Part shown: positions 32,638 through 60,954 of the stretch, piece by piece | Layout of the letters: every line of letters starts with the position of its first letter | Numbering within the stretch: position 1 is the stretch's first letter | Position numbers and translations under genes: made by a program | Source: a virus | IMG/VR virus record: IMGVR_UViG_3300044638_004201 | Span: 1-64,000 of that record | DNA: 64,000 bases | Direction: 5' to 3' (one strand) | Notes under the pieces: generated by a model | Database searches by the model: none | The model's input: the letters and a program-made list of their open reading frames with translations, nothing else | Told to the model about the DNA's origin: nothing

Positions 32638-34407
32638 GTGGGCGTATTCAAACGCGAAGAACCATCCAGTGAACCTGTTCGTCCTGCCGTTCCCAAGAAA
32701 GCATCCTCGCCTAAAAAGGGTAAATCAAAATCTACTACTCGCTCTACACAATTAGTTGCTCGTCGTAGTTCTTCTAAAGTTTCTGGACCTGCCTCAGTAT
32801 TTTTATCATCACCTGCATCTTCTGTTGCATATTCAACTCCACGTTCTTTAACTGCTGCCGCAGTTCAAATCAAAATTAATGATAAAGGCGAGTTTGAACA
32901 ATTTAGACAACGTCGCGCCGCTGGTTCATCAGCATGGCAAGCAGAAGCATGGGAATACTACGACGCAATCGGTGAAGTGAAGTATGCCTTCAACCTTGTT
33001 GCATCAGTTGTTTCACGAATTAGAATTTATGCAGCGGTTGTAGAGAACGCATCTGAGTCCCCAACATCTGTACGCAATGCACGAATTATTGATCCACGTC
33101 TTGCTGCTGCCGCAGAAAGAGCACTTGCTCGTTTAGATTCTGCATACGGCGGACAAGCAGGACTTCTTAAGGATGCAGCACTTAATCTTTCAGTTGCTGG
33201 TGAATGTTATTTAGTTCAGATGCCAGAGAAAAAGGGATCAGGCGTTCCTGAATCTTGGGACATTCGTTCCGTTGATGAAATTATGGCAGATGCTCGTGGT
33301 GGATACAACGTTATTGGTCGCCGTGAACAAACAGCAGGTGGATCTATAGGAGTTAATCGTCTTGCTAATGGTGCATTCGTAGGACGCATTTGGCGTTCAC
33401 ATCCACGTTACTCAGATGAAGCAGATTCATCACTACGCGGTCTTCTAGACCTTTGCGCAGAACTTCTTTTGCTCAACAGAACATTCCGTGCAACAGCACG
33501 CTCTCGCCTAAACGCTGGCGCTCTTTACTTACCAGATGGTTTATCAGTTGCTGCACAAGGCGACCCTGACTATCCATATGATGAGGCAGACAGTGAATTA
33601 AATCCTGGCTTTACAGCAGAAGAAGCAGAAGATGAGTTTGAAGAACAACTTATTGATGCAATGACAACTCCGATTCGTGATGAAGAATCCGCATCAGCAG
33701 TTGTTCCGCTTATCATTCGTGGCCCTGCCGAACTTGGCGATGCCATTAAACAATTTAAGTTTGAGCGTTCGTTCGACCCTGCGTTGGCTCAACGTGCAGA
33801 CCGTGTTCTTGAACGTATCCTTCAAGGTTTAGATGTTCCAAAGGATGTAGTCACTGGTCTTGCCAATGTGAAATATTCGAACGCTCTACAAATTGACGAA
33901 GCACTCTACAAGGCACACATTGAACCATTGATGTTGCTCATTGCAGATGCTTTGACTATCGTCTATCTACGCCCATACCTCACTGCTCAAGGTTTCAACG
34001 CAACTGAGGTTGACAGAATTGTTGTTTGGTATGACCCAAGCGCAGTTTCAACTCGCAATGACAGAGCAATGGATGCTGACTCTGGATTTGACAGAGGAAT
34101 TATCTCTGGAGAGACATGGCGTCGTGCTCACGGCTTCTCTGCATCTGATACACCTACAGCAGAAGAAGTTGGAATCAGAATGCTCTTTGAAAAGGGAGCA
34201 ATCACACCTGAACTTACTGAAGCAATGCTTGGTGCACTAAGTCCTGAACTTATGATGAAGGTAAGAGAGGCTCAACAAGGCGCATCTGTTGCTCCGCTAC
34301 CTGAAAGTGTTGAACAACTTCTACAACAAGCAACTTCTGGAGCACCTGCGGAAGGCGGTGAACCAAATGTCGAAGACAATCAGCCAGACACCAGCACCGA
34401 AGTCTGA
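32638..34407 (+). CDS. Portal protein (actinophage cluster-B-like)
   Basis: WQAEAWEYYDAIGE, NLSVAGECYL, SRLNAG.L.LP, ASAVVPLI; position before the head genes. Confidence 0.8.
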   Translation: MGVFKREEPSSEPVRPAVPKKASSPKKGKSKSTTRSTQLVARRSSSKVSGPASVFLSSPASSVAYSTPRSLTAAAVQIKINDKGEFEQFRQRRAAGSSAWQAEAWEYYDAIGEVKYAFNLVASVVSRIRIYAAVVENASESPTSVRNARIIDPRLAAAAERALARLDSAYGGQAGLLKDAALNLSVAGECYLVQMPEKKGSGVPESWDIRSVDEIMADARGGYNVIGRREQTAGGSIGVNRLANGAFVGRIWRSHPRYSDEADSSLRGLLDLCAELLLLNRTFRATARSRLNAGALYLPDGLSVAAQGDPDYPYDEADSELNPGFTAEEAEDEFEEQLIDAMTTPIRDEESASAVVPLIIRGPAELGDAIKQFKFERSFDPALAQRADRVLERILQGLDVPKDVVTGLANVKYSNALQIDEALYKAHIEPLMLLIADALTIVYLRPYLTAQGFNATEVDRIVVWYDPSAVSTRNDRAMDADSGFDRGIISGETWRRAHGFSASDTPTAEEVGIRMLFEKGAITPELTEAMLGALSPELMMKVREAQQGASVAPLPESVEQLLQQATSGAPAEGGEPNVEDNQPDTSTEV

Positions 34408-35320
34408 TCAGATTAAAGGTTCATCAAAAAACAAAAAAGATTCTGCTAAAGGAACTAAAGAAGCACGCAAAGTAAAATTTTCAGCATCAGTTGAAGCATC
34501 TTTGAAAGAAAAAGTTTCTAAGCATAATGAAAAAGCACCATCTGGACGTAAAGCATCGCTAGGAATGCTCAAAGCGGTCTATCGCCGTGGCGCAGGAGCA
34601 TTTAGTGTCTCGCATCGTCCTGGAATGAATCGCAATCAATGGGCTATGGGTCGCGTCAATGCTTTTCTAAAACTTCTCAAGTCTGGAAAGCCTACTAACT
34701 CTGCTTACACCACTGACAATGACCTTTTACCTTCTGGACATCCTCGTTCTACTAAAAAATTTAATTCAATTACAGCAGCAGGTCTTGTTCCAGAAGAACA
34801 AGAGTTAGCAGCAGCACTTGTTGAGATTGCTACCAAGTATGGAAAGTTTAATGAAGATGAAACTGGCATATGGGCTGGCTACACATCTGCGGCAGATAAC
34901 AAAGACCAAGAAATCGGCGTTCATTGCGCCAACTGCGTTCTTTATGCTGGCGGAGACCAATGCCAAATCATTTCCCTACCTGTAGAGCCAATGGGAGTAT
35001 GTCGTTTTGCTGTTCTTCCTGATGGCGTAATCAAAAAAGAAGGAAAAACATCTATGAAAGATGTTGAAGAGTTTGCATACGAGCAAGAACTTAATATTGA
35101 ACTAAAAAATAAAGAAGATTACCTATATCCAGAAGACGCTATCCTTGCTATGGCAGAGTATTCAGGTTATGGATATGAAGCAGAAGAAGCAATTAGAGCA
35201 AGTTGGCTTCGCGGCGTAAGAAATGGCGATGACCCTTTTCTTCGTGCTTCGCTTTTAGCATCTTTGGGTCATGCAAGTCTTGATGGAGATTTATTACCAG
35301 AGTTTGAGGAAGGTATATAA
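34367..35320 (+). CDS. Head-associated protein with HiPIP-like Cys cluster
   Basis: VYRRGAGAF...WAMGRVNAF...DLLP..HPRS domain; CANC-x8-C-x12-C. Confidence 0.65.
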   Translation: MSKTISQTPAPKSDQIKGSSKNKKDSAKGTKEARKVKFSASVEASLKEKVSKHNEKAPSGRKASLGMLKAVYRRGAGAFSVSHRPGMNRNQWAMGRVNAFLKLLKSGKPTNSAYTTDNDLLPSGHPRSTKKFNSITAAGLVPEEQELAAALVEIATKYGKFNEDETGIWAGYTSAADNKDQEIGVHCANCVLYAGGDQCQIISLPVEPMGVCRFAVLPDGVIKKEGKTSMKDVEEFAYEQELNIELKNKEDYLYPEDAILAMAEYSGYGYEAEEAIRASWLRGVRNGDDPFLRASLLASLGHASLDGDLLPEFEEGI

Positions 35321-35322
35321 GA

Positions 35323-38300
35323 GTGAGCAGAATTCGCAGACTAAGTCACGCAATTTCAGAAGAGGGACGTCGCTCTCAATCAATGAGCCAGGCTCTTCGT
35401 ATTCGTGAGTCAGCACTTTCTGTAATTGAACAGGCGAACACAAATGCTAATACTTCTCGCCGTATCACAAAGAAGGCAGCATTTACTGTAGTTCTTCGCT
35501 CACTTCAAGCAACACGTCATCTTCCATTCTCACTACGTGAGCATATGGCTTTGAAGGAACTTACTCAGTACATCAACCTTGCTCAAAACAATAAGAACAA
35601 CTCTTTAACTCTTTCACACACAGATTTACTTCCAATCTCACACCCACGCTCAACTCGTGACCACTCTCTTACAGCATCTGCTTTAGAATCTTCTCGTGCT
35701 CGTTGGTTTGTTGATGACGCACGAATTACAGATGAACGTGCACGAGTAATTCTTGCATCAGCACTTACTTCAGAGTTTGGCTCTGTAGAACACACTTACT
35801 ACAACTCAATTCTTGCTGGTCTACCACAAGGAACTTTGCCAACCGAGACATTGCTTGCTGCTATGGGCGATGGAAATTCTCCAATTGCTCGTTCTCTTCG
35901 TGCAAAACTACAACGTCGTGACCGCAAAGGTCGATTCGCATACCAAGGCGGAGGTCTTCGTGCTCTAGTTCGTCGTGCTGGAAAAGTATTTAGCGTTGTT
36001 GGTAAAACTCTTATGGACTCCAATGATGGAGAAAATGTTCTTGTAGAACTTCCAGATGGTCGAATTGCTAAAATTCCACCTTCAAAGGGCGAGTTCGTAA
36101 AAGCAATCCTTAATCCAACTGCTGACGGATTTAGCAAAGCACCAGTTCGTTATTCAGTTAGCGATGATGTAATAAACGAAGAAGATATTGAATTTGTTGA
36201 AGCACCAGACGGCTGGGAAAAATTAGGTGGCTACACTTGGAAGAATGAAGAGTGGAGAGTTACTAAGGATGATTTTGGTAATCTAACTGCAAGCAATGGC
36301 AAAGGCCCAATTATCGATGCCAAATCTTGGTCAGAGATTTTAGATAAGATTGATGAAATTGATAAGCCTTCTCAGGAAACAGAATTTCCAGAAGCAAAAG
36401 AACAACAAAAACAAAAACAAGAAATTATAAAACCTAAAGAAAAAGCAGCGGCTTTTGCTTTTGCTATTCCTGAAGGCGCAAAAATAATTAACCCAGATTC
36501 ATCATATGACCCTGAAGGTCGTATTGATGAAGAGTCAACAGATTTTACTGATGACCCTGTAGAACTTGCACAAAAGTATGACCCTCGTGATTTAGTTGCT
36601 GCTTTAGAAGAAGCAGTTATTCCAAAAGAAGATGGCGAAAACGCAACTGGCTATGGAGCACTTGGTTTCAATAACGGAGACGAGTTTGTTCCAGCAGAAG
36701 CATTGTTTTTTGCTCTTCAAGAGGCTGGCGAAGATGCTCCTCTAGAACTTGCAAGAATCTACGACAAAAAACTTGGAACTAAACAAAACGAAGAAGCACT
36801 TGCTGACTTCCGTAAGGGCTCAGAGAATGTTAGTGGACCTAATCCAGATATTGCTGAAGCGTTTGAAAGAACTATTGAGCGCGACGCAGATGAGGCACCA
36901 GCAGCAGAGATTCCAGATTTCAATAAAGAAGAGATGGACCTAGTTCCACTTCCAGTTGTATTAGATGGTCTTGGCGAAGCCGAGATGGCTGAATTTATGA
37001 AAACTAAAGACCACACTCCTTATCTTCCAAAAAATGATGATATTGATATGCCAGCGGGATATCACAAAATCAATCCTGAGCCATACCAAAACTGGAAAGA
37101 AGTTACTGAAGAAGACCAGAATGAAAATCTTCCAGTTGGATTTAGCGACAACCCTGTTTTCTTGGCGCAGTCTGTTGAAAAAGAAAAACTTGTTGAAGAA
37201 CTAAAGCGTGGTATTGAGCCAGGTAATCCAATTCCAGGACACGCAAACGTGTCTATGAAAGATGATGATGGCGAAGAGTTTGTAGCAAACGTTCCTGTAG
37301 AAGCAGTGCGTGATGCTTTACAACTTCTTGGAGAAGATACAAACGCACTTGTTAAGTCAATTGCTGATGAAGGATTTGTTGGACAAGAAGAGCAACAAGC
37401 AGAACTTCCTCTAGACCTTCCAACTGAAGCAAAGCCAATGAATGCTTACGAGCGTTTGATGGCAGAGCAAGCAGCAGAAAGAAAGGCTGTCGAAGACCGC
37501 ATAGCAGAACTAAAAGCCAATGCTGAAGCCCGTGTTGATGACCAAGGACGTAATGTTCCTGAGGGTTGGGGAATCTCACAAACAGTAGGAAGAATGTTTG
37601 GCCGTGCTCTTCCAGAAAACTATAACAACGTTTATGGTTTGAATAACTTTGAAGCATCTACTGATAAAGATGGAAAGATAACTGTAAAAGACCGCAATGG
37701 TCTTGTTGAACCAAAGACTTATGAAAACTGGGATGAAGTACAGGCAGACCTAGATGCTCGCAAGGCAGAGTATGCAAAAGCATCTCGTGAAAAAATTAAA
37801 GAGTTTGCTAAAGGCTATGGTTTTTCTGACGAACAGATTGCCGCTTTTGATTCAATGACTCAAGCGGAGATTGCAGATTTCTTCGCTAACCCAGATAACC
37901 ATACAGAAGCCTACAAGAGCGCTTTAGATGATTTTGAAACATCATGGGCAGTTGATATGCCTCGTCCTGCTCAAAGAGAACGCTGGGCAGCCTTTGGAAA
38001 AGAAAAGCGTATTTCAGAACAGGCTGGAGATTTCCCAGATGGAAATGCACCAGTTGCAGAACTTCCAGTTGCAGCAGAGCGCAAGCCAGGCACTGCTACA
38101 GAAGGTGAAAAAGGTTTAGACATTGTTTCTGTTCCAGAAAACAAAAACATTAGACCAGCAGCCCCAGATGATTTTGAGGTTGATGGATTACAAGAGATTC
38201 CAGACGGATTTGAAGAATATCCAGCGGCAGCAAACGTTGCACCTGCTCCAGCCCCAGGGGACGGTGGAGATGGACCAACACCTCCAGGTGGAAATGGAAA

Positions 38301-41300
38301 TAGACCACCAATTCGTATTACTGTAAAAGCAAAAGACATTTTGCCTGGTGATATTACTGTTGGCGACCATTTTGTAATTACAGAAGTTGGCGAGAAAGTT
38401 CCAGGAACAGATCGCATAAAGATTAAGGGTTACTACCCAGGCCATGTCGAACAAGATACAAAGCAGTGGAATGAATGGCGTGAGATTCCAGTAATTCGTG
38501 GCGCACAGGCTCCTGAAATGGGAGACCTACCAGTTCTTTCTAAGCCAAAAGAAAAAGATTTTGGTCGCAGAAAGAAAAACGCAGATGGCTCTTGGGGATT
38601 TGCTAAGGCAGAAGACCAAGCAGCCTTTGATGCTGCTCGTGCTGACTACGACATACAACTAGACGCAGCAAAGAAGCGTTTTGTTGACCCAACAGAACCA
38701 GCAAACCAGCCACATCGTGTTATCTCTCGTGCTGCTGATTTGAAGGCTGGAGATGTAACTACAGACCCTAAGAAGGGTCACTTTGTAATTGAAAGAATTT
38801 TTGTTGACGAAAACACAAAGCCAGAGTTTGTCAGTGTTGAGGGTTACTACCCAGGACACGTCACTCAAAGAAAAGAGTGGAAGGCAAACGGCCCTATCGA
38901 TGTTATTCGTAACGTTGAACCACCTGCAAAGGGTGATTTAGAAGAGTTACACCAACCTCACAACGTTGTTGATGGTAAATGGCGTCCAGATAAGGACCCT
39001 GCCAAGCGTGCAGAGCATCAGAAGAAACTTGATGAGGCCGCAGCCTTGTGGCAAGCACCAGCAGACCTTCCAGTTATTAACCAGAAGGATAATGTTGCAG
39101 AGCAAGATAAAGATATTCCTAATGCTGTCGCTGTGCGACGCCCTACACCTCCACGTCAGATTGAAATGCCAGCCTTCCAAGGTGATATGGCTGCAATTGC
39201 TCGTGAAGCAGGTGGAGACTGGAATAAGTTCCGTGAACTTCTTAAGGATAAAGATTTAGTCTTCTTTGATTTTGAAACAACTGGAGTAGATCCAGAAGAT
39301 GGCAACGAGCCATGGCAAGTTGCTGGTGTTCGTGTTCGCAACGGTGAAATTATTGACCGCGTAAATATTTTTATGAACCCAGGTCGCTCTATTGCTGATA
39401 CATATGCTGGTCGTGATACAGATGGAATCCCTAACGCTGTAGATGACAAGGGCAACAAACTCAATGATGATTTCTTAGGTCAGCAACCAAACCAAGAAGA
39501 TGCAATGCGTCAGTTCTTGGAGTGGGCAGGACCAAATGCAATCTTCGGCGCACAAAATATGGTTTTTGATGATGAAGTTGCTCGTCGTCTTGCTGACCGT
39601 CATGGTCTTGACTGGGCTCCAGGAGGTCTATTAGACATTCTGCCAATGGCACGAGACATCTTCAAAGACCAACCTAAGGAAAACCGTCCTCAGGCTCCTA
39701 AGGGCCGTAAAAATCATTACGCTTTAGGAAACCTTGCTAAACATCTTGGCGTTGACTTAGAAAATTGGCACGCAGCAGATGCTGATGCAGAAGCAGCAGC
39801 AAAGATTTTCAATGCTCTTATTGACAAGGGAATTGAACTTGATGCTGGTAAAGATTTGTTTGATGTCGATGCTCGCAACGATGAGTATGTGGCAAAGATG
39901 GATGGATATAACGCAGCCTTCGATGCTTACGAAGGACAACTTGCTGAATACGCTGCTGCTAAGGCAATGCGAGATGGTCTCAATGGCAAGCCCGTAAACA
40001 CTGATGGTGCTGTAAAAGATGCTGTTGGTACTCCAAACCCTGGCGAAAATATTGATGCTGGTCCTGTCGGCCTTGAGCCAGAACCAGTTCGTGCTCGTGA
40101 TGAAGTTGTAGTTCTTGATTTCACACCTAACACGATGTTCCCTCAAGGAAAGATGAGAATGATGGACCGCGACTGGGTGCTTAACCCAGACAACGCCGTT
40201 CTTCTACCTCGTGAAAATATTCGTATGCGTGATTTACTTCCTGGAGACTTTATGTCTTCTAAGGATGGAAACATTATCTGGCAAGTAGTTGCTCTTCGTG
40301 GTGGAGAAGAGTTTGGTCTTGAGCCAGGAAAAGTTAGAGTTTATCGACGTAATATTGAAAACGGAGAAGTTTCTACATACGAACATTTCCATACAGTGTT
40401 CTTAGACGGAGTTCGTCGTCCTAAGAATCCAGAAGATTTGAATGTTCCAGAAGTTATGCCAGAAGGTGAAGCAGCACCGTTTATTGCTAACGACCCTGTT
40501 GATTTAGATAAGAATGCAGAAGAGGTAGGAGCAGAGAGAATTTGGCTTGATGCTTTTGGTCTTCCAGGCATTGGCATTGGCACAATTATTATTGATAAGA
40601 CACCTGGAGGAAGATTTGCACTTCGTGCACTTATCCACAATAGCGATGATGGAAATGAAATCTACAGAGTAGAAGAAGAGTACAGAACTGCTGAAGGTGC
40701 TAAAGCAGAGGGTGAAGCACTTATCAAACTTCATGCAAAAGATTTGCTTGACCAAAAGCGTAAGGAACAAGCAGAGCCAGAAGAGGCACGAGCAAAAGAT
40801 GTTCCTATTGCTCGCGGAGACATTCCAGGCGATGCCAACAATGCCCCACAAATTATTGAAGTACAAGACCTACCAGACAATCTTGCTGGAGACATCAAGA
40901 TTCAAAACGTTGGCGACGAGAAGCCAGACTTCCAAGCAGACGCTGTTGTTCGTGACCTTGACGGAGATTTGTTAGCAAATCAGACTACAAATCATCCTGA
41001 CAAAGATAAGGCAGAGAAAGAAGGCCGCGAGTTTATTGCTCGTGTAGTTGACGCTCTTCAAAATCCAGAACAACCAGTAGAAGATAAAGATGCGCCAAAG
41101 AACATTAATGGAAGACCTGTTGGCACTAAAGCCCGCGTTAAATTTATACCGAGTGCTCCTGGAGTTCCTCCACGAGAAGAAGTTTATATTCTTCAAGAAG
41201 ATGGAAAGTGGAAGAACGAAGAAACAGGTGCAGTAAGAGATGAACTTCCTAAAGCCTGGTCTGCTGAAAAAGATGGTTTTGGACGCGGAGGATATAACGA

Positions 41301-44300
41301 ACCTGTATTTGAAGAGCCAAAGAAGAAGAAAAAGAGAGAGCCAAAACCTCTATCTGAAGATGCAAAAGCAAAAATTGAAGAAGAAAAGGCAAAAGAAAAA
41401 GATAACGCTTGGGTTGAGGAAAACGCTGGTCGTTTAGCACCTATTGAAGCCCAAGAAGTTCAAGTTGGCGATTTCTTCTGGTCTCCATTCTGGGGTAACT
41501 TCGAGGAAGTTCTTGCAGCACGCTACATCGGTGTCCTTGATAGGTATGAATTCATGATTCAAAACCGTGTCAATGGAAGAATTGAACCTCGCTACTTCAA
41601 GGCTGACTCACCGCTTCGTAACATTCGTCGTCCTGGTGTTGAAGATCAAGAGTTTGAAATTATTGATGAGCCAAAGGGAACAAAAGCAGTTCCTGGAGCA
41701 AAGCGTGGACAAATTAAGCGTAAGCCTCTTGGAGAAAGAATTGTTGCTAAAGAGGGTCGCCCAATGGGTGGAAGATATAAAGAAGAAGGATTCTACGAAG
41801 ATAGAAATGGCATTGCCCTACAAGAGGGAGATGTTGTTCGCTTCAAGGACCCAGTAAAAAATGCTAAGTGGGGCCGTGGTGTTGTAAAGGCTCGTATGGG
41901 CGCACAAGTTGAAGAAGGTCAAAAGGCTGGTGGTCAAGGCCGTAAAGGAGTTATTTACCTAGACAAACTTATCATTCAATTTGAAGGTGAAGATGAAAAA
42001 TGGGCATTCCGTCAAGGTGGCCGTGAACTGAAGGGTAGAAATCTTATTCTTCAAAAGGGAGATAACACTGACATTGTTCTTCCTGATTTCCGTGGACCAA
42101 AAGCAAAGCCAGTAGATCGTGGACTTGGCATTGAAGGTCCTGGCGGACGTGTTGTAAAAGAGCCTAAGGTAGAGCCAGCATTACCTAAAGCAGAAGACGA
42201 CCAAAAGGCTAAAAAACTTAGAGCAAAAGAATTAGGACGTCAAGCATTTGCTAGAGGTGGTAGAGGAAATCAACTACCAGCAAACGACAAAGAGTTTATG
42301 GAAATGTGGGAGTTTGGACCTGCTGGACCTAATAAGGCTGAACTCTGGAACGAATGGCTTGCAGGGTTCCAAGAAGCAAAAGATGGGGCACCTGTTGATG
42401 TAGAGCCACAAGAACCAGTACGGGCTCAGGGGCAAAGGATTCGTGCTTTAGTTGACCGAAACCTAGGTAGAGACAAAGAAGAAGATTTGAAAGAGCAAAT
42501 TGAGCAAGCAATTGCTGATGGAGATGCTATTGCTTTTATGTACAACGGAAAAGCAAGAAACTTTACTCCTAAGCGCGTCTGGGTAAATCCACAAAATGGA
42601 AATGTAAATGTTGGTGGCTTTGAAGGTGGCCAAATGAAAAACTTTACAATTCAAAAAATGGACTTTATGCCAACTGATGAAAATGGAATTGTAGAAGGTA
42701 TTCCAGTAGAGGCTCCAGCCGCAGATAAGCCTGATGCTGATGCTGCTGATGCCAAATTAGAAAAATTCAAGGCTGACTTCGGGAACAAGTTTGACGACCT
42801 TGAGAATAGGGAAAATGTTGTCGCTGGGCTTCAGCAAATTGCTGATGCTCTTCCAAAAGCAAGAAACTACAAAGCCGCGTTAAACTTAAGAAACGCTCGT
42901 CAAGCACTAGATGATATTAATTCTAAATTTGCTGGAGGCGCTGGTGTAGACGAAATAAGCGAATACAATTTAGATGCAGCAATTCGCCGTTTGAGAAGAG
43001 AATCTAATGATGCTTTTGCTCAAGATGCAGCGGATAAACTTGAAAAAATATCTAAAGAGATAAAAGCAAAACGTCAAGAACTTGTCAACAAGAGACTTGC
43101 TGCACCGCTTCCTGAACTCCCTGAGCCTAAGGGCGTAGACAAAGATGGAATGAAGAATGTTATCAATGAGATTATTCAAAGACTTCCAGAGTATGGAGAC
43201 TATAACGCACGGAAGTCTGCTAATAGAGATGCTGGCATACAGAGAGATGCACTAAGAAAATATCTTAAGTCTATAGATCAAGATATGCTTGATTTGGATG
43301 ACATCATTCATTCAGACTTAGAAGAAATCGCTAATGCTTTAAGAAGAGTCGCTAGTGTAGAAGCAAAGGACGGCAATCAGCCTAATGCTGATAAGTATGA
43401 AAACTTTGCTGACATATTAGATGGCTACCGCACAGAGTTAGAAAGTCGCGGTGGCGGTCCAGTAGTAAAGCAACCATTAAATAATCTAGACCCTGAAGAA
43501 GTAGCAAAGCAAAGAATTGCTGATAAGGCAAACGAGTTTGCTCCTGTAGAAAAACTTCAAGCATTTATGGCTGATGATTTGAATGTTGATAACGACAGAC
43601 TTCTTCAACCATTCAAAGATGAATTACAAGAGTTTTTTGCCAACGGCGACCCTAAGCCACTAGCAATGTTAACTCCCGCTGCTCGTCAAGCACTTGGTTT
43701 TTTTGTTGGTAAGGCGCTGAAAGATTCTAATAATCCAGTTGATCCAGACAAGAGCGAAGAGGTAGTTAATAATCTTGGTGATTTGGCTGTACAACTTCAC
43801 GCTGAAAGACTTGCTTTTACTCCTAACGCTCCTGATTTAGGGGTTGGCGATGCTCTTCTTGATATGGACTTTTCAAAGATAAAAGAACTAGGAGACTTCC
43901 TATACAGGAACAGAGTTGAAAGAGATGTAAAACTAAAAATAAACGGTCAAGACACTGGATTCAATATAAAAGTAGCAATCGATGAAGATAAAGGTGTAAA
44001 CACAACTTATTTCATAACTCATAGAGCGTCTGGTCGTAAGTTTGTTATGAAGTTAGACACTATGGTTGGAGAGCGTGGTGCTGACGCAGAAATTGCATCA
44101 GCGGCCCTTAATCGTGCTTTAGGAAACATTGGCGCTTATCAAGTATTCCGTCATAGGAGTAGAAGAGATGTAGTTGTCACATCCTGGGCTGGAGAAATGG
44201 TTGACTTTGAGTCAGAGCCAAAGCGTATCGGAGACACCAAGTACCTAAGACAACATGAACAAGCCGCGATGAACGGTGCTTTTGTAGATGTTATTGGACT

Positions 44301-44733
44301 TGCTATTATGGATGCAATTCTTATCAATGGTGATAGACATAGAAATAATCTCCTTGTAGGAAAAGTAAAAAATCTTGATGGTGTAAATGCAAATGACGAC
44401 ACCGAAGCAGTTCAATTTATGGCTGTTGATCACGGACTAGCGGGACTTATCGTCAAAGGCGGAATGATGTCTCCAGACGATTACATCCAAGGCGCTGACA
44501 GTGACGATAGTCATAGAAGAGCAATAAATATTGCTTCTCAACTTGTCGACAAAATTGGCGTTGATTTGTACAAACGAATTAATGATATGACCATACAGCA
44601 AGCAGTTCAAGCACTAGAACGAGAGCGCGGAAAAGACATTACTGACGCTGATTTAGATGCAATAATTAAAAGACTAGAACTTCTTCGTGGAATTGATAAT
44701 TCCAAGTGGAAGCGCATATTGAGGAAAAGATAG
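35323..44733 (+). CDS. Giant polyvalent virion protein: repeats, DEDDh exonuclease, WYL-like domain, C-terminal HipA/PI3K-like kinase
   Basis: DFETTG / NxxFD / HxAxxD at ~39250-39830; IAFMYNGKARNFTP...MKNFTIQKM at ~42500-42670; FVMK, E, DRHRNN, VDHG at ~43960-44730. Confidence 0.8.
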   Translation: MSRIRRLSHAISEEGRRSQSMSQALRIRESALSVIEQANTNANTSRRITKKAAFTVVLRSLQATRHLPFSLREHMALKELTQYINLAQNNKNNSLTLSHTDLLPISHPRSTRDHSLTASALESSRARWFVDDARITDERARVILASALTSEFGSVEHTYYNSILAGLPQGTLPTETLLAAMGDGNSPIARSLRAKLQRRDRKGRFAYQGGGLRALVRRAGKVFSVVGKTLMDSNDGENVLVELPDGRIAKIPPSKGEFVKAILNPTADGFSKAPVRYSVSDDVINEEDIEFVEAPDGWEKLGGYTWKNEEWRVTKDDFGNLTASNGKGPIIDAKSWSEILDKIDEIDKPSQETEFPEAKEQQKQKQEIIKPKEKAAAFAFAIPEGAKIINPDSSYDPEGRIDEESTDFTDDPVELAQKYDPRDLVAALEEAVIPKEDGENATGYGALGFNNGDEFVPAEALFFALQEAGEDAPLELARIYDKKLGTKQNEEALADFRKGSENVSGPNPDIAEAFERTIERDADEAPAAEIPDFNKEEMDLVPLPVVLDGLGEAEMAEFMKTKDHTPYLPKNDDIDMPAGYHKINPEPYQNWKEVTEEDQNENLPVGFSDNPVFLAQSVEKEKLVEELKRGIEPGNPIPGHANVSMKDDDGEEFVANVPVEAVRDALQLLGEDTNALVKSIADEGFVGQEEQQAELPLDLPTEAKPMNAYERLMAEQAAERKAVEDRIAELKANAEARVDDQGRNVPEGWGISQTVGRMFGRALPENYNNVYGLNNFEASTDKDGKITVKDRNGLVEPKTYENWDEVQADLDARKAEYAKASREKIKEFAKGYGFSDEQIAAFDSMTQAEIADFFANPDNHTEAYKSALDDFETSWAVDMPRPAQRERWAAFGKEKRISEQAGDFPDGNAPVAELPVAAERKPGTATEGEKGLDIVSVPENKNIRPAAPDDFEVDGLQEIPDGFEEYPAAANVAPAPAPGDGGDGPTPPGGNGNRPPIRITVKAKDILPGDITVGDHFVITEVGEKVPGTDRIKIKGYYPGHVEQDTKQWNEWREIPVIRGAQAPEMGDLPVLSKPKEKDFGRRKKNADGSWGFAKAEDQAAFDAARADYDIQLDAAKKRFVDPTEPANQPHRVISRAADLKAGDVTTDPKKGHFVIERIFVDENTKPEFVSVEGYYPGHVTQRKEWKANGPIDVIRNVEPPAKGDLEELHQPHNVVDGKWRPDKDPAKRAEHQKKLDEAAALWQAPADLPVINQKDNVAEQDKDIPNAVAVRRPTPPRQIEMPAFQGDMAAIAREAGGDWNKFRELLKDKDLVFFDFETTGVDPEDGNEPWQVAGVRVRNGEIIDRVNIFMNPGRSIADTYAGRDTDGIPNAVDDKGNKLNDDFLGQQPNQEDAMRQFLEWAGPNAIFGAQNMVFDDEVARRLADRHGLDWAPGGLLDILPMARDIFKDQPKENRPQAPKGRKNHYALGNLAKHLGVDLENWHAADADAEAAAKIFNALIDKGIELDAGKDLFDVDARNDEYVAKMDGYNAAFDAYEGQLAEYAAAKAMRDGLNGKPVNTDGAVKDAVGTPNPGENIDAGPVGLEPEPVRARDEVVVLDFTPNTMFPQGKMRMMDRDWVLNPDNAVLLPRENIRMRDLLPGDFMSSKDGNIIWQVVALRGGEEFGLEPGKVRVYRRNIENGEVSTYEHFHTVFLDGVRRPKNPEDLNVPEVMPEGEAAPFIANDPVDLDKNAEEVGAERIWLDAFGLPGIGIGTIIIDKTPGGRFALRALIHNSDDGNEIYRVEEEYRTAEGAKAEGEALIKLHAKDLLDQKRKEQAEPEEARAKDVPIARGDIPGDANNAPQIIEVQDLPDNLAGDIKIQNVGDEKPDFQADAVVRDLDGDLLANQTTNHPDKDKAEKEGREFIARVVDALQNPEQPVEDKDAPKNINGRPVGTKARVKFIPSAPGVPPREEVYILQEDGKWKNEETGAVRDELPKAWSAEKDGFGRGGYNEPVFEEPKKKKKREPKPLSEDAKAKIEEEKAKEKDNAWVEENAGRLAPIEAQEVQVGDFFWSPFWGNFEEVLAARYIGVLDRYEFMIQNRVNGRIEPRYFKADSPLRNIRRPGVEDQEFEIIDEPKGTKAVPGAKRGQIKRKPLGERIVAKEGRPMGGRYKEEGFYEDRNGIALQEGDVVRFKDPVKNAKWGRGVVKARMGAQVEEGQKAGGQGRKGVIYLDKLIIQFEGEDEKWAFRQGGRELKGRNLILQKGDNTDIVLPDFRGPKAKPVDRGLGIEGPGGRVVKEPKVEPALPKAEDDQKAKKLRAKELGRQAFARGGRGNQLPANDKEFMEMWEFGPAGPNKAELWNEWLAGFQEAKDGAPVDVEPQEPVRAQGQRIRALVDRNLGRDKEEDLKEQIEQAIADGDAIAFMYNGKARNFTPKRVWVNPQNGNVNVGGFEGGQMKNFTIQKMDFMPTDENGIVEGIPVEAPAADKPDADAADAKLEKFKADFGNKFDDLENRENVVAGLQQIADALPKARNYKAALNLRNARQALDDINSKFAGGAGVDEISEYNLDAAIRRLRRESNDAFAQDAADKLEKISKEIKAKRQELVNKRLAAPLPELPEPKGVDKDGMKNVINEIIQRLPEYGDYNARKSANRDAGIQRDALRKYLKSIDQDMLDLDDIIHSDLEEIANALRRVASVEAKDGNQPNADKYENFADILDGYRTELESRGGGPVVKQPLNNLDPEEVAKQRIADKANEFAPVEKLQAFMADDLNVDNDRLLQPFKDELQEFFANGDPKPLAMLTPAARQALGFFVGKALKDSNNPVDPDKSEEVVNNLGDLAVQLHAERLAFTPNAPDLGVGDALLDMDFSKIKELGDFLYRNRVERDVKLKINGQDTGFNIKVAIDEDKGVNTTYFITHRASGRKFVMKLDTMVGERGADAEIASAALNRALGNIGAYQVFRHRSRRDVVVTSWAGEMVDFESEPKRIGDTKYLRQHEQAAMNGAFVDVIGLAIMDAILINGDRHRNNLLVGKVKNLDGVNANDDTEAVQFMAVDHGLAGLIVKGGMMSPDDYIQGADSDDSHRRAINIASQLVDKIGVDLYKRINDMTIQQAVQALERERGKDITDADLDAIIKRLELLRGIDNSKWKRILRKR

Positions 44734-44742
44734 GATGACACT

Positions 44743-45504
44743 ATGACAATAAAAATATATCGCGGATATCCAGATAACGAAGTTTATACTGGCTATAACT
44801 ATGTGTTGTCTATCGTAGCAGCAGACTCCGATTTTATTTATATCTCAGACCCAGATAGTGGGTTTGATGATGAAAGAAAAGAGATGCTTATTGATGTTAT
44901 GAAGCATAATAAGAGAAGCCTTCCTAAAGATGCTGACGGCTGGGCTGCTCTTGCTATGTATAACATTTCTGGTCTCTCCTATAAAAATGTAACTGGAGAT
45001 GAAGAAATTTCAGACGACTCCTATGACGAGGTTGTTATGGATGAAATTGTTTCTTTTGAAGATGCAAGAGAATTTAGAGCAAGTCAAGAAGAGCCAATGA
45101 CCGCAGCAGTTGGAGATGCTTGCCCACCTGCTACTCAAGACATCGCTCTAAACCTAAAGAACCGTAAAAATGCTATTGACACTGCTATGTACGGTCCACT
45201 AAATCCAGATGAGCCAAATAATGAATATTGGCAAGCACTGGCAACAGAGTGGAGCGTAGATGTGGAAACTGCAAAGCAACAGCGCTGTGGTAATTGCGCT
45301 GTTTTCGTAGTCACATCATCAATGAAGGATTGCATCTCTCAAGGGCTGACTGGAGAAACTCAGTCCGATGAGTTTGATGCAATAGACGAGGCTGGAGAAC
45401 TTGGATACTGCGAAGCATTCGATTTCAAATGTGCGTCTGCTAGAACCTGCCGTGCATGGGTTTCGGGAGGTCCAATTGATGACGAAAAGGCTAAGGAGCA
45501 GTAA
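44743..45504 (+). CDS. Acidic N-terminal domain plus Cys-rich (HiPIP-like) C-terminal domain
   Basis: CPPATQD, RCGNC, GYC...FKCASARTCRAW. Confidence 0.7.
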   Translation: MTIKIYRGYPDNEVYTGYNYVLSIVAADSDFIYISDPDSGFDDERKEMLIDVMKHNKRSLPKDADGWAALAMYNISGLSYKNVTGDEEISDDSYDEVVMDEIVSFEDAREFRASQEEPMTAAVGDACPPATQDIALNLKNRKNAIDTAMYGPLNPDEPNNEYWQALATEWSVDVETAKQQRCGNCAVFVVTSSMKDCISQGLTGETQSDEFDAIDEAGELGYCEAFDFKCASARTCRAWVSGGPIDDEKAKEQ

Positions 45505-45803
45505 TGGCATTCTCACCAAACAATCCAGAGTTTCCAACTGACTTAATATGTCATTGCGACACTGACCTGGATGAGGCAGCATTTCTTACTTACCAATCTG
45601 ATGATGGTGATTTTTACCGCGACAAAGGTCAATGGAAAGAAATCTCATTAGAAGACGATTGGGAGTTAGATTTTGATGGTTTAATTATCGTATACGTAGA
45701 CCCCGCCTTCATTTCTGTCTATGACGAAGCCGATGAGCAAGACTTGGCTATTCCGATTGAAGAAGTTGTGAAGTACGAGTCAGTAAGTCCAGAGACGGAG
45801 TAA
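45504..45803 (+). CDS. Small acidic protein
   Basis: TAATG-coupled ORF. Confidence 0.65.
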   Translation: MAFSPNNPEFPTDLICHCDTDLDEAAFLTYQSDDGDFYRDKGQWKEISLEDDWELDFDGLIIVYVDPAFISVYDEADEQDLAIPIEEVVKYESVSPETE

Positions 45804-45806
45804 AAA

Positions 45807-48800
45807 GTGCAATTTATTGGTCGCAGTGGCAATGAGGTTCTATTCGTTGCCGATAGCAAAGCCGTAATTGTTGACGAACAAACAAAACTCGTATGCTCTG
45901 TAGGTGATGCTGACTCTATGGTCGCATCTTTCATACCTGATGGCGACCAAACAAAACCAGAATCTTCTATCCCTTTTGAACTTGCTGTTGCTGCTACAAC
46001 AGACCTTGATATTAAAGTTTTTTCCAACAATGACCGCTTATACACAATTCCTAAATCAGTTCAGGCCGAAGCAAAACGAGCATTGGAATGGCGTAAGGAA
46101 GAAAAGCGTGGCGGAACTCCAGTCGGTCTAAACACTGCTCGCACTCTTGCTCGTGGTGGACAAATTGGTATTCGTAAAATTCGTCATATTGCTAAATATT
46201 TTCCACGCCATGAAGTAGATAAAAAAGGCAAAGGCTACAAGCCTGGACAAGAAAACTATCCAAGCAACGGACGTATCGCTTGGGCACTGTGGGGCGGGGA
46301 TGCTGCTAAGTCTTGGGCTACAGCAATTGTAAATCGTGAAAATAGAAAAGCCCAATCTAACTCTATTACCGCCTCTTTCGAGTATGTCATGTCTGACTAC
46401 GCTAAGCCAGAGTCAGTTGACCTTAACTCATTTATTGAAGCAGAAGTTATGCCAGAAGAAATGGCACCTCAATTTTATATGCGTGTTCGTTTAGATGGTT
46501 CAGGGATTGACCGTCTTTATAAAGTAAATCCAGATGGCTCTGTCTTTGTTTGGGACGATGCTATGTGGGAAGATTTAGGAAATATAAATCACGACTTTGA
46601 AACCTACGATAAGTCTCTTGACGATGCTTATGACAATGTATCAAAACTACACTTGCCTATAGATTCCAAAACAGCAGTAATTATTTCTGGTCTCTTTGAA
46701 GCAGACCCTTTCAAAGCAGTTTATGTTTCTCAAATTGAGCCAGAAGAGTCTCAACTATTTGTTGATGAGATGGATGGCGTCGACTGGGATTTAGTAGACG
46801 AAGTTGAATACGATGAAACTGATTATAGTGAGTATGAAGAATATTCAGAAGTAGATGATTCTCTAACTGCCGCAGGTGAAGCACCATCAAGTGGCGCACC
46901 AACAAATCAAGATGGAAACTACACCCCAGAAGAGCGCTCAGAAAAGGCTCGTGGTCAGGTTCGTGACAAAATGGGCAAGTTTGCTAAGGCTGGTGGAAAA
47001 GTTGTTATTGGTGGAAACCCTGAATACACGGGAACTATCGAGTCAATAAATCCAGAAAGTCAAAGCGTAAAAGTAAAACTTACAAATGGTAGTTATGTAG
47101 ATGTACCTGCTAATACAACAGAGTCAGTAGACACTTTCAAACCAATGCCTCAGGTTCAGTCTGCTGTTTCAACTAAGCAGTTAACTAAAAATATTCTTGG
47201 AGAGCCTCGCACTCCTATTGATAGACCAGCAGCAACTCTTACAGCAAAACTTCCACAGTTGCAGGTAAATCAAGTGAAAACAATTCTTAGTGATTTCTCC
47301 CCCTGGGCAGTAGACCTTAGACAAGCAGCACAAACTCCAGCATCTTCTCCAGATGCTCCAACCGAACTTCGTAAAACACCTAATGCCTATAACGACCCAT
47401 CTTTACGTGCATTTTTAGAGAAGACAGTAGTAAAAGATGGAAAGACTTCTAATCCAAATGCAATTTGGTACCGACCAGATATTTCTAAGACACCAGTAAA
47501 ACCTTCCGATGTTGAAGCATATAAACCAGCAAAAGATTTGAAACCATCTCCTGGTCTTACACCAGTGCCTTGGTTAACACAGCCAGCAAAAGGATTTACT
47601 TCTTCTGCTGAAGCAGCAGAGGTAGAACTTACTCCAGACACATCTGATGTTCCTCCTATCTATATGGCAATTGTTTCTCCAGATGACCCTCAGGCTGTTA
47701 TGGAATTAGTTTCATTAGTACCTGCTACTAATAAAACAACTACTCCAATGACTTATAAGCGTAAGCCAGGCAAGTGGGAAAAAGATGAGCAGATTCTCAA
47801 TGACCTAAACAGTCCTACTCCTCCACCAGTTATTGTTTTAGATAATGACAACCTTGCTTTGGTATTAGACCAAATTGATTCTGTAAAACCAGCAACTGCC
47901 TCTATCAGCAATATTGATTCAAGAATCATTGCTTTGATGGCAGCAGGTGGTGCTGATAGAAACCGTGGCAACGCTGAAAAACTTCGTCGCTACTGGTTAT
48001 ATGGAAAAGGCGCAGCAAAGATTCGTTGGAATACTCCAGGAGACTGGACACGCTGTGTTCGTCAACTTTCTAAATATATGGGACCTCGTTCTAAGGGCTA
48101 TTGCGCCTTACGCCATAAAGAAGCCACAGGTATGTGGACAGGCGATAAAGAGCATCGTCAACTGTTTGGTAAAAAAGGAAAAGCAAAGAATACTTTTAGT
48201 AATGATTTTGTCATTCCATCAGAGGCAGTTCTTGCTTCAGTAATTATGAAAGCAAGAATTGCTGACGCTAAGAATCGTGTTTTGACTGCTGGTGCTTCTA
48301 TGGAAGAGCCTGGAGTTGGGGCACAGTTTTATATTCCTCTAGTTATCCCTGAAGCCATAGAGTCTGGCGATGGACGTAAATTTGTTCCAGGGGCTATCTC
48401 AATGAGAGAACTACCACTACCTTTCTTATGGCAAATCAAGACTGGCGAAGGCCATTCCGGATCAGTTGTTATAGGAAAAATTACCAAGATGGAAAGAGTA
48501 GAAAATGGCATAGGAAATGCCTATGGCTATTTTGACACAGGTGAGTACGGAAAAGAAGCGGAAAGACTCGTTCGTGGCGGATTTATCCGTGGAGTTTCTG
48601 CTGACTTAGATATGTTTGAAGCAAATGAAGAAACAAATGCTTCAGAAAAAGAATCCGACGGCAAAGTCGGAGCAGGTAAAATGAAGATAACAAAGGCAAG
48701 AGTTATGGCTGTAACGCTTGTCCCTAAACCCGCTTATCAAGAGTGCACTATTGAACTCGTTGATGAGAGTGGGAGAGACCAGGAGGAAGAAGTGATTCAA

Positions 48801-52944: not shown

Positions 52945-53820
52945 ATGGCCTTTACGGGAGTTTTTGAAGCACCGAAGCATATGCCTTCACAGTACGGGCT
53001 ACTCTCTGTCGCAAAGCCAGAAGCAGGTCCTAAAGAGGATCAATGGATTCGTGGCTTTTCACAAGAGTGGACCACTCAGTATTACTCTGCAAAAAATATT
53101 GACGACACAGACACGACACTTATTACTGTTGCAACTAATGCAACCCCTACTCGTTATGACGAGATTAAACCATTTTTTATTGAAGTCGAAGATTACCGCT
53201 CAACCCTAGGATTACTTGGCGTTGACCCAATTGAAAGAATTAAGAATCAGTTAGAGGGAATTACACAGCACGCAATTGAAAAAGAACTTTGGGAAGGTGG
53301 AGTCCGCATTGGCGAGACTCACACTAACAGAGCACTAGTTAGCCCAGAAGCATCGATTCTAAACTCAGGCACTGCACTGTCTCCTCGTCGAGCACTGGCT
53401 CTTCTTGATTTCCAAATTGGCTCAGCATCTCCTTCTGGAGAACAAGGCGTTATTCACATGACTCGTGACGTTGCTGCGTTACTCGCAAGCGACGCTCAGT
53501 TGCTTATACATAGTGAAGGTAAAGACCACCTTCAAACAATAAGCGGAACGCCCGTAATTGTTGGTTCTAGTTACACAGGTGCAGGTCCAACTGACGCTGC
53601 TGGTGATACAGAGACGCCAACATCTACAAACAAATGGATGTACGCCACTGGTACTGTCAAGGTTATCCTTGGTGATATCGATGTCGTCACTGACACACTG
53701 GCACAGGGATACAACGTGTCGGGAAATCAGAATGATATGAACCTTAAAGCAATTCGCCCAGCGGCGGTTTACTTTGACACCTCTATTCACTTAGCAATCA
53801 GAGTAGATTTAACAGCGTAA
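52945..53820 (+). CDS. Second capsid protein (pentamer/minor capsid type)
   Basis: YGLLSVA, E..LW.G, GVIH, T..GTPV..G.SY, WMYATG.V. Confidence 0.7.
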   Translation: MAFTGVFEAPKHMPSQYGLLSVAKPEAGPKEDQWIRGFSQEWTTQYYSAKNIDDTDTTLITVATNATPTRYDEIKPFFIEVEDYRSTLGLLGVDPIERIKNQLEGITQHAIEKELWEGGVRIGETHTNRALVSPEASILNSGTALSPRRALALLDFQIGSASPSGEQGVIHMTRDVAALLASDAQLLIHSEGKDHLQTISGTPVIVGSSYTGAGPTDAAGDTETPTSTNKWMYATGTVKVILGDIDVVTDTLAQGYNVSGNQNDMNLKAIRPAAVYFDTSIHLAIRVDLTA

Positions 53821-60800: not shown

Positions 60801-60954
60801 AGTTAGAGATAAAGCAATCATTGACAGACTTTCTGGTGGTGGTGGAAAGGGAGTTGTTATAAATGTTCATCCATCTGAAGGCATGGACGAGAGAGAACTA
60901 GCAGCAATAGTTTCTCGTCAGATTGCTTTTGCAACTCGTAGGGGAGCAGCATAA
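57868..60954 (+). CDS. Tape measure protein
   Basis: 1028 aa, helical and Ala-rich; N-terminal VGDAYV; hydrophobic segments; C-terminal FAEGG...AEAGRPE. Confidence 0.9.
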   Translation: MAVVGDAYVVVRAITTGVEKDIKNAFNGTDRIGENAGDRVGRSFVKGFMRGGDGRSMFSNIISQATAARERFTSLTRAGYALAPALTALGGIIGLLGTGLLSLGSVIAAATAPAFYVLAQSVTAVAQAAITLKLAFSGVGKAIQAGSKAKKAGADRAKALEKAEDRLTKAQRALANAYEDAATREVKAKKTITDAEKELSKAREQAIEDLQQIGFESEDAAIAEQKAAIELEKARETLARVSDLPPNSRARKEAELAFAQADLNYRKAIDANNDLKKTEAKNAELAKKGPQALIDGQENVVNALASVDDATNAYNETIKDNERSILSATEARDEAAEAVDDIKNNKDATDAYADALAELSKEARAFAEYMVNTFIPALKDLKAAAGEELFPKLETALENLRTKLFPALIPLLKETGGVIGDIAVKFSEAVTKGENLERLERIWKSNDKVLKNFGDALVSLYENLLIILDNISPLTEEFSAWIAAVTAGWTETLKADEASGKLNEKFQTARGILKDLGKIIGNTFGGLGKIIAANVGPGSGGQFFLDYLKEVTGRFKNITEIDGRPLKDFFLDAAENGTRLLDLIGNILGGFIGLADNEGLGIFLLQLNDVVDIFQEIGENLDASLPSFGNFLIQFATFVALVTESGSITIFFDTLSKVLGKINEFLASDLGQKILNISAQVLPLLAAIGLIGSVAKFAFLVVLGGIVKLITPFITLGTVIFNAYKAFMGLKIVMLLGAGPVLAIVAGIAALVAIVVLLFTKSEKLREAFMLLIDGALGALKGAFNDIMGAIDSIMPSIRSVGELFESVGNFLAVTLVPILSFILVRAIGVLSGAIQKVIYVIGGIIEAFKAVWYFVKGIFQLLTGNTEGAADSMKKSFSAAFSAIKNVIKSIVAPFTGVINAISDAWNNSVGKLSWTIPKWVPGIGGNTFSVPKLPRINLANFAEGGTVFPQTGGVIARVAEAGRPERIEPLDPEGLSVRDKAIIDRLSGGGGKGVVINVHPSEGMDERELAAIVSRQIAFATRRGAA

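Follow-up and report, generated by a model that had tools for sequence, protein, structure and literature searches.

The stretch analysed here (hereafter the window) comprises positions 1 to 64,000 of virus record IMGVR_UViG_3300044638_004201, part of a 73.8-kb IMG/VR virus contig with an estimated completeness of about 55%. Its head module contains a giant open reading frame (ORF) of 3136 amino acids (aa), which is the subject of this report together with the small gene that directly follows it. The giant ORF between portal and protease, described in a first-pass annotation made from the sequence alone, is a real gene, as it is conserved in at least 110 full-length relatives from independent assemblies. 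The closest named phage is the metagenome-assembled Actinomycetia phage DSL-LC01, whose capsid protein is 72% identical, followed by Microbacterium, Arthrobacter and Gordonia phages, and the phage of the giant is an uncultured DSL-LC01-like freshwater actinophage. The order of the head-module genes is that of a siphovirus, with the genes listed below followed by tail genes (in all motifs, an arrow marks the putative cleavage position):

32638..34407, plus strand: portal protein, 589 aa (phrog_776, E 1.8e-110)
34289..35320, plus strand: 343-aa head gene with DUF5824 (Pfam, E 7e-8) and a leader paralogous to that of the giant; the real start probably lies past the portal stop codon
35323..44733, plus strand: giant ORF, 3136 aa, GTG start, no cysteine (ORF call; 110 full-length relatives)
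44743..45108, plus strand: N domain of the 253-aa gene (aa 1-122, acidic, ending PMTA↓A), predicted partner or inhibitor of the kinase of the giant
45109..45504, plus strand: C-terminal Cys-rich module of the 253-aa gene, starting ...CPP, a mobile head-cargo module
45504..45803, plus strand: 99-aa gene, very acidic, conserved between the giant and the protease gene
45807..50546, plus strand: 1579-aa prohead protease/scaffold-type protein (phrog_18402 prohead-protease domain, E 2e-57)
50720..52834, plus strand: major capsid protein, 704 aa; its acidic N-terminal region is long and ends in PVTA↓AA

The 110 metagenomic relatives recovered by database search range from 1756 to 4376 aa and share up to 92% identity with the giant. 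About 100 of them cover residues 1-700, and coverage past aa 700 is patchy. The architecture of the 111 family members was tabulated by running one profile per unit. Judged by sequence, the first ~700 residues are the constant chassis of the family, made up of the leader with its terminal xTA↓S motif, the RDRxGRF module and both A repeats, all of which are detected by the unit profiles in at least 100 of the 111 members:

35323..35697, plus strand: N-terminal leader (aa 1-125), ending DLLPxxHPRSTRxHx(M/L)TA↓SAL (aa 101-121); profile in 101/111 relatives
35830..36222, plus strand: RDR module (aa 170-300), GNSxxxxxRAxLQRRDRxG(R/K)FAxxGGG plus a small beta region; 106/111 relatives
36466..36798, plus strand: repeat A, copy 1 (aa 382-492); self-BLAST E 3e-7, unit in 109/111 relatives
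37051..37401, plus strand: repeat A, copy 2 (aa 577-693); self-BLAST and profiles

The junction that closes the leader is retained in most relatives (T117 in 91, A118 in 82 and S119 in 84 of 111), and a putative prohead-protease cut site lies after A118; the relatives do not keep a second xTA↓S-like site, at aa 321. The leader has a paralog in the neighbouring 343-aa gene, of which aa 106-166 align with aa 63-121 of the giant (E 2e-5) and whose leader ends in ...DLLPSGHPRST..SITA↓AG. More generally, six proteins of the head module (portal, 343-aa, giant, 253-aa, protease and capsid) are enriched in a [LIVM][TV]A[ASG] motif, which they contain at 3-10 times its frequency in shuffled sequences. 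The same motif terminates the acidic N-terminal region of the capsid protein, and it lies 4-8 residues ahead of the Cys-rich module in all 21 distinct cases in which that module has a leader, while the module begins at Met in 28 leaderless cases. At leader/cargo boundaries, this motif is a candidate site for the prohead protease, and it is found at the following positions:

32848-32859 (portal aa 71-74), 34769-34780, 35668-35679, 45097-45108, 46365-46376, 46863-46874 and 51542-51553: [LIVM][TV]A[ASG] sites, typically xLTA↓A/S

The motif of the RDR module (aa 184-211) is nearly invariant, with R199 in 104, G203 in 103 and F205 in 105 of the 111 relatives. The module is common to the N-terminus of gp68 of Microbacterium phage Cece, a cultured phage in which this protein occupies the same slot (E 3e-9), and the N-terminus of gp67 of Gordonia phage GodonK has a related LTA↓A...GRW motif. 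Furthermore, the protease protein contains the motif twice in the form RDxxGKF, after a TA↓A motif, at aa 386 (46962-46982) and aa 1420 (50064-50084). The RDR module is listed with its counterparts in same-slot proteins as a candidate head-docking module, the motif of which may be a shared head-docking tag:

L003:9612-10211 and L091:3303-3450: RDxxG(K/R)F/W motif at the N-termini of Cece gp68 and GodonK gp67

The A repeats correspond to the duplicated unit of ~100 aa that had been noticed in the first-pass annotation, and aligning aa 382-492 with aa 576-693 bears it out (30% identity, E 3e-7).

The syntenic gene of DSL-LC01 encodes 3289 aa (L001:3957-13826) and matches the giant in leader, RDR module, A unit and WYL-like units alone. 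The DSL-LC01 protein has one A unit and two or three WYL-like copies, is without exonuclease and gives no kinase-profile match; at aa ~1730-1800 it contains a segment with the motif WLANWDVVG...DN. Among 50,697 phage records, neither a DNA search with the giant nor a tblastn search with its kinase gave a match, and DSL-LC01 was the sole tblastn match of the N-terminal 700 aa. The mid region of the giant as a query found two close relatives and no others, the whole protein matched PolC exonucleases alone among PDB sequences, nine sub-segments gave noise alone against Pfam at E <= 1, and aa 1-345 had no usable match in an ESM Atlas search. Literature searches gave no account of the family, and the paper describing DSL-LC01 is silent on its own giant gene.

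Past aa ~700, the giant is a shuffled string of small beta-barrels, of KOW/SH3 type and WYL fold, together with two intact enzymes. Over the 111 members, the unit profiles detect the kinase in 86, the exonuclease in 79 and the WYL-like unit in 44. Its parts are given below, with AlphaFold2 (AF2) models and their predicted local distance difference test (pLDDT) values where these define a unit:

37420..38022, plus strand: region aa 700-900, probably helical from sequence; in 46/111 relatives
38284..38640, plus strand: unit B, copy 1 (aa 988-1106; ILPGD...GYYPGH), presumed small beta-barrel; self-BLAST E 4e-12
38692..39042, plus strand: unit B, copy 2 (aa 1124-1240; DLKAGD...GYYPGH); self-BLAST and profiles
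39220..39852, plus strand: DnaQ/PolC-type DEDDh 3'-5' exonuclease (aa 1300-1510); Pfam RNase_T, phrog_192 (E 1e-26), PolC structures, NCBIfam and PADLOC DEDDh
40120..40422, plus strand: unit C (aa 1600-1700; DLLPGD), weakly related to unit E, whose profile matches aa 1612-1715 (E 1e-3)
40465..41094, plus strand: units D and D2 (aa 1715-1829 and 1840-1924); reciprocal profile matches, E ~1e-10
41290..41697, plus strand: unit E (aa 1990-2125), with a barrel of KOW/EF-P domain I type at aa 2036-2104; AF2 pLDDT ~90
41740..42117, plus strand: unit F (aa 2140-2265; LQEGD), beta-rich (aa 2159-2243, AF2 model) with a disordered insert
42295..42477, plus strand: unit G (aa 2325-2385), three-helix insert; 3/111 relatives
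42463..42663, plus strand: WYL-like domain (aa 2381-2447); transitive homology and fold, 44/111 relatives
42730..43827, plus strand: helical region ahead of the kinase (aa 2470-2835); AF2 model of aa 2651-3136, helices to model residue ~212
43831..44715, plus strand: atypical kinase domain (aa 2837-3131); K2910, E2923, D3004, H3006, N3009, D3036

Of the two enzymes, the exonuclease is intact at the sequence level, as the first reading had it. Pfam RNase_T (PF00929) matches aa 1313-1496 over its full profile (positions 1-164; E 3.3e-14, 54.2 bits against a cut-off of 24), and alignment to the PolC exonuclease places the complete D-E-D-H-D set of the Exo I/II/III motifs at D1316, E1318, D1416, H1483 and D1488.

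The terminal kinase had been proposed from a lysine, a glutamate and the motifs DRHxxN and DHG. All of these residues are present, including D3004-R-H3006-x-x-N3009 and D3036-H-G, with the N-lobe lysine K2910 picked by eye from an FVMK motif. In an alignment of 18 sequences, G2957, N3002, D3004, R3005, H3006, N3009 and D3036 are invariant and E2923 is nearly so. The model of the domain (pLDDT 82.7) is predicted to have a PI4K-II/HipA/CotH-type fold, with matches to CotH (Z 13.7, 257 aa), PI4K-II (Z 12.3), HipA (Z 12.2) and HipT (Z 11.4 and 11.2), and also to Fam20 and CtkA, while Foldseek returned Tel1, VPS34 and PI3K-gamma of the PI3K/PIKK group at E ~1e-4. At the sequence level, a profile search of PDB sequences found PI4K-II beta (E 2.4e-4) over the catalytic loop and DxG segment, and Pfam PI3_PI4_kinase (PF00454) matches the catalytic segment alone at 20.9 bits, below its gathering cut-off of 27.1, which the relative P0087 barely reaches (27.2). 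A lipid would be unlikely as the default substrate of the kinase in a bacterial host.

In an exhaustive search of 1.84 billion representative proteins, 65 kinase clusters were found, nearly all of them at the C-terminal ends of giants or in short, probably truncated, proteins. Within the family, the kinase mostly closes the protein but lies internally in P0089-P0097. Its usual place is taken in P0041-P0049 by ArdC-N and MPTase-PolyVal, both of them hallmarks of the polyvalent class (PMC5512222); the corresponding Pfam families, PF08401 and PF18818, are carried by the same-chassis relatives P0041-P0049 and P0068-P0069, and the window giant carries neither. In the near-identical phage L011, the protein is 83% identical over aa 1-1921 of the giant and the protease gene 98%, but the kinase allele merely 28%; profile searches identify the kinases of L011 and L034 as divergent alleles. 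The C-terminal domain swapping that was to be looked for among relatives is thus confirmed, both as replacement of the kinase by ArdC-N/MPTase-PolyVal and as exchange of kinase alleles. In a library of predicted viral structures, proteins with the fold of the kinase are found in uncultured phages, under names that refer to a head-morphogenesis (MuF) domain, an HK97 portal or an ADP-ribosyltransferase. The fold is also present in GodonK gp67, which is encoded directly after the portal of that phage; there, the likeness is at the level of the fold alone, and neither the kinase profile nor the DRHxxN motif was found.

The gene directly downstream of the giant appears to encode a partner for this kinase. 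An N domain is found within 400 nucleotides (nt) after the kinase in all 21 loci with sequence downstream of the kinase and nowhere else in about 90 loci, those of the ArdC type included. Stand-alone N domains, in 139-aa and 219-aa forms, follow the kinase in L014 and L020. Furthermore, pairwise identities of N domains and kinases co-vary strongly over 12 non-redundant loci (Mantel r 0.94, p 2e-4), as opposed to those of the N domain and the C-terminal half of its own gene (r 0.12) or the 99-aa gene (r 0.27). The predicted complex of kinase and N domain has an interaction prediction score from aligned errors (ipSAE) of 0.77 against 0.00 for the best of three controls; a score this high was obtained for 58 of 80 solved complexes and for 2 of 110 mismatched pairs, counts that apply roughly, as the prediction was made with alignments built for this analysis. 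Separate runs agree in at least 86% of contacts, with a partner pLDDT of at least 78. The confident part of the predicted interface comprises the catalytic loop (G3003, D3004, H3006-N3009), the DHG segment (3035-3046) and the N-lobe strands, and the model places the invariant R45 of the N domain against D3004 and H3006. The N domain has no Pfam family and no PDB relative by sequence, and for a partner without a known family the score is unlikely to reflect memory of a solved complex.

Taken together, co-occurrence, co-variation and the predicted complex over the active site, all of them in silico results, support the N domain as the probable cognate partner of the kinase. The predicted occlusion of the catalytic cleft and the existence of stand-alone forms without cargo favour the role of an inhibitor over that of an adaptor or substrate, and most likely the N domain would keep the kinase silent in the producer cell. 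Both acidic neighbours of the giant had been suggested as inhibitors of the kinase, and that suggestion gains support for the N domain of the 253-aa gene and none for the 99-aa gene, which also stands beside kinase-less giants and tracks the protease gene.

A further feature of the giant is its complete lack of cysteine: none of its 3136 residues is one, although the average of the other ORFs of the window (0.67%) would predict ~21. This extends to the family, since 85 of the 111 relatives have none and the maximum is 3. Also free of cysteine are Cece gp68, GodonK gp67 and, in the window, the capsid protein (50720-52834), a 291-aa head gene (52945-53820) and a 1028-aa ORF (57868-60954) that occupies the position of the tape-measure gene in DSL-LC01. 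The absence of cysteine would fit a protein that leaves the cell and passes the tail channel unfolded. In addition, the slot beside the portal is kept in every relative examined, including DSL-LC01, Cece (gp68, 1654 aa) and GodonK (gp67, 1479 aa).

The giant is, in our judgement, probably a cysteine-free, mosaic polyvalent cargo that is loaded by its chassis and delivered with the DNA, its kinase forming a two-gene cassette with the N domain. A polyvalent, virion-delivered toolkit is the best-supported reading of the protein, on circumstantial grounds: the slot by the portal, the shared leader and junction motif, the near-total absence of cysteine, the relatives with ArdC-N/MPTase-PolyVal, and the fold relatives of the kinase that carry MuF or portal domains. 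Under this reading, the chassis would load a few copies of the giant into the prohead, where the prohead protease would remove the leader at TA↓S. The protein, its small domains strung on charged linkers, would then leave the head along with the DNA and enter the next host, each domain unfolding in turn. There, the barrels, the modules of single-stranded DNA-binding type and the exonuclease could act on nucleic acids, and the kinase could phosphorylate a host target ahead of phage gene expression. In the producer cell, the N domain would cap the catalytic cleft of the kinase, with R45 on D3004 and H3006, and, joined via xTA↓A to the Cys-rich module, it may also carry that module into the head.

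A more elaborate version, which we put forward tentatively and hold to be doubtful as a whole, regards the kinase and the N domain as a virion-borne weapon with a safety catch. The partner would cap the kinase in the producer cell and during assembly, the protease would free the partner from its Cys-rich cargo at xTA↓A, and unfolding at ejection would strip off the partner, so that the kinase fires only in the new cell. Alleles would be swapped as a cassette between near-identical phages in an arms race over the host target, and the cleavable leader, TA↓A and RDxxG(K/R)F tag would form a modular head-loading grammar for arbitrary payloads.

The evidence for delivery has to be weighed against readings that keep the giant in the head or in the producer cell. 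The first-pass annotation had likened the protein to those of polyvalent/MuF type, of which the polyvalent part stands by architecture and context, but the MuF-type part does not by sequence: Pfam and PHROG give no MuF match in the giant, and aa 1-726 match neither Phage_Mu_F nor any other of their families, which leaves the virion-delivered reading without a head-anchoring domain known by sequence. Its other weak points are that the packaging, cleavage and ejection of the giant are all inferred, and that the TA↓A motif is short and tied to the protease by inference. The missing MuF domain and the indirect evidence for packaging would suit a late cytoplasmic multi-enzyme of the producer cell, acting in host shut-off, DNA processing or superinfection exclusion with the N domain as its regulator, and a kinase restrained by a co-expressed partner is likewise what one may expect of a regulated cytoplasmic enzyme. 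However, the lack of cysteine throughout the family is matched in the capsid and tape-measure proteins of this phage, the leader and junction motif are common to head proteins, the position between portal and protease is constant in every relative seen, and MuF and portal domains occur in fusion with relatives of the kinase fold; a role outside the virion is accordingly given little credence. Alternatively, the giant could be packaged and stay behind as an internal head part (a DNA organiser, an inner-body or pressure element, or a DNA-end binder), its enzymes acting in the capsid or on the ends of the phage DNA. Its slot in the head module and shared leader motifs fit this equally well as ejection, and the many nucleic-acid-binding folds (WYL, with the WYL domain of DriD solved bound to single-stranded DNA; KOW-type barrels; exonuclease) speak for it. 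On the other hand, the C-terminus exchanges unrelated effectors, namely kinase alleles and ArdC-N with MPTase-PolyVal, a pattern seen with host-directed conflict domains (PMC5512222) and not with a structural part, and it is hard to see what a kinase paired with a matched active-site partner would do inside a capsid, so that we consider retention in the head improbable.

As to the N domain, it could be an adaptor that brings the Cys-rich module into the prohead on the giant, or the first substrate or an activator of the kinase, and not its inhibitor. It holds the leader position upstream of xTA↓A, like other leaders, and co-occurrence, co-variation and predicted binding show partnership but not its sign. 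The co-variation could even be explained by linkage alone, given the adjacency of the genes and the conserved Cys-rich module downstream as an obvious recombination anchor; the 21 loci amount to about 9-10 independent kinase alleles; and the predicted interface expresses the model's own confidence and is no measurement, with a capped active site that would also fit a substrate or pseudosubstrate. Against an adaptor stand the N domains without cargo in L014 and L020, so that cargo transport cannot be the sole role of the domain. The predicted geometry also speaks for inhibition: the interface spans the catalytic loop, the N-lobe strands and the DHG motif, and an invariant Arg faces the catalytic Asp/His, which amounts to occlusion. 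An adaptor, substrate or activator is thus regarded as unlikely, and inhibition of the kinase in a giant that would be delivered remains the preferred interpretation.

The WYL-like domain ahead of the kinase is supported in fold and by transitive homology, in agreement with the first-pass annotation. The giant itself has no match to Pfam WYL (PF13280), at E <= 0.01 for the whole protein or E <= 1 for the segment. Residues 2384-2447 align with aa 1231-1307 of the relative P0087 (E 4e-12), and aa 1238-1296 of P0087 match Pfam WYL (29.5 bits, cut-off 21.8). The model matches PafBC (Z 9.2, root-mean-square deviation (rmsd) 2.6, 67 aa), DriD (Z 8.3-8.7, rmsd 1.5-2.2, 62-64 aa, 23-24% identity), and BrxR and CapW (Z ~8); the Z values are modest for a small barrel, yet the top-ranked fold matches are all WYL proteins. 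The W-Y-L signature residues are not kept, as the strand reads N-V-N-V where the consensus of the family is N-x-N-L/V, a comparison made by eye and not by residue alignment to WYL proteins.

Among the remaining units, the two GYYPGH copies of unit B constitute a second tandem duplication (aa 985-1107 against 1123-1241, 33% identity, E 4e-12), and a third internal duplication was detected by profiles in units D and D2 (aa 1747-1816 against 1841-1922). An initial guess that units D and D2 are YegP-like was dropped, as no support was found. The earlier count of about five SH3-like units is partly sustained: five xxPGD/xxxGD starts are found, at aa 1006, 1139, 1637, 2046 and 2166, and the two of the five that were modelled correspond to the KOW-type barrel of unit E and the beta-rich part of unit F. 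In the AF2 model of aa 1990-2470, the former superimposes on EF-P domain I with Z 8.2 and rmsd 1.6 over 63 aa. Unit G, of ~60 aa with the motif GRxAFxxG...P..D..F...W..G(F/Y), is missing from the closest relatives, and a similar piece lies elsewhere in the giant of L064; judged from this distribution, it appears to be a small mobile module.

At least 598 contigs in IMG/VR carry the Cys-rich module that follows the N domain, with identities of 70-90%. The module occurs in three contexts, namely preceded by a leader of its own, as the first part of a 489-aa protein encoded upstream of the giant, and fused to the C-terminus of the protease protein (loci L004-L083 and L087-L090). No PDB or Pfam relative of the module was found, and the label 'HiPIP' in the DSL-LC01 record is unconfirmed.

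The 99-aa protein has 28 acidic and 4 basic residues and is kept in the ArdC-type phages at 38% identity. As a homologue adjoins the kinase-less ArdC-type giants, it was rejected as an inhibitor of the kinase. Its identity is decoupled from that of the kinase, with 94% for the kinase against 54% for the 99-aa protein between L016 and L025, 27% against 87% between L034 and L012, and 50% against 95% between L006 and L007. The partial correlation between the two, given the protease gene, is 0.19, and the sequence follows the protease gene more than the kinase. A role as an assembly chaperone or a DNA mimic is a guess in either case. In the ArdC-type phages, a short ORF (about 57 aa from the first Met, L087:14440-14673) overlaps the end of the giant at the place of the kinase partner, to which it bears no likeness, and it might be a partner for the ArdC/MPTase end.

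If the virion-delivered reading is correct, abundant freshwater actinobacterial phages inject a pre-made enzyme kit of ~345 kDa that includes a kinase type not previously tied to virions, restrained by a matched partner. A regulated, cassette-swapped effector would thereby join the injected phage proteins already known, and it would direct attention to host targets in freshwater Actinobacteria, which dominate ecologically and are hard to culture. The loading and expulsion of very large proteins could also be studied on the giant, whose chassis, junction motif and absence of cysteine are all checkable, and the loading grammar, if true, could be used for packaging foreign proteins in phage heads.

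Among known kinases, the type II PI4-kinases and PI3_PI4_kinase are the best match of the kinase of the giant at the sequence level, but at ~13% identity. With HipBA and HipBST it shares the kinase fold, an adjacent small protein that is predicted to lie on the active site, and the inheritance of kinase and partner as a pair. However, the Hip kinase is a free toxin, whereas this kinase ends a 3136-aa head-module protein, and the N domain, which is joined to a Cys-rich module via the junction motif, has no detectable similarity to HipB or HipS.

With regard to carriage in the head, T4 relies on an N-terminal targeting sequence that can be cleaved off, and the protein ejected by N4 is about as large as the giant. 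T4 Alt, the internal proteins (IPs) of T4 and the 3,500-aa virion RNA polymerase (vRNAP) of N4 are precedents for head-carried enzymes that are injected with the DNA, as cited in PMC5512222. None of these is related to the giant in sequence, and its xTA↓A cleavage and ejection would be parallels by analogy. MuF/SPP1 gp7-type minor head proteins likewise have a gene directly after the portal, a constant N-terminal part and a variable C-terminal effector. The fusions found among the kinase-fold relatives measure about 1,000-1,340 aa, the giant being several times larger, and its constant part consists of the leader, RDRxGRF and the A repeats.

The closest comparison is with the polyvalent proteins of phages and conjugative elements, which combine 2 to 15 distinct effector or binding domains per polypeptide (Iyer, Burroughs, Anand, de Souza and Aravind 2017; PMC5512222). 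The giant differs in that it carries none of the domains of their catalogue, MPTase and ART included, while relatives of the giant do carry two of them, ArdC-N and MPTase-PolyVal. In a text search of the paper, no DEDDh exonuclease came up among its domains, and WYL is mentioned only as a host sensor domain. The kinase clade of that catalogue is a truncated Ser/Thr/Tyr type from prophages of Verrucomicrobia and Bacteroidetes, whereas that of the giant is predicted to have the PI4K-II/HipA/CotH fold, and the passages retrieved from the paper describe neither a conserved chassis at the N-terminus nor a lack of cysteine nor a partner matched to the kinase. What the giant does share with the polyvalent proteins portrayed there is a very large size, many effector and nucleic-acid-binding domains, a gene by the portal and head genes, and extensive mosaicism. 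Its exonuclease, kinase, WYL-fold domain, KOW-type barrel and further repeated units provide the multiple domains that characterize such proteins, and the order portal, giant, protease, capsid places it among the virion genes of a portal-terminase phage.

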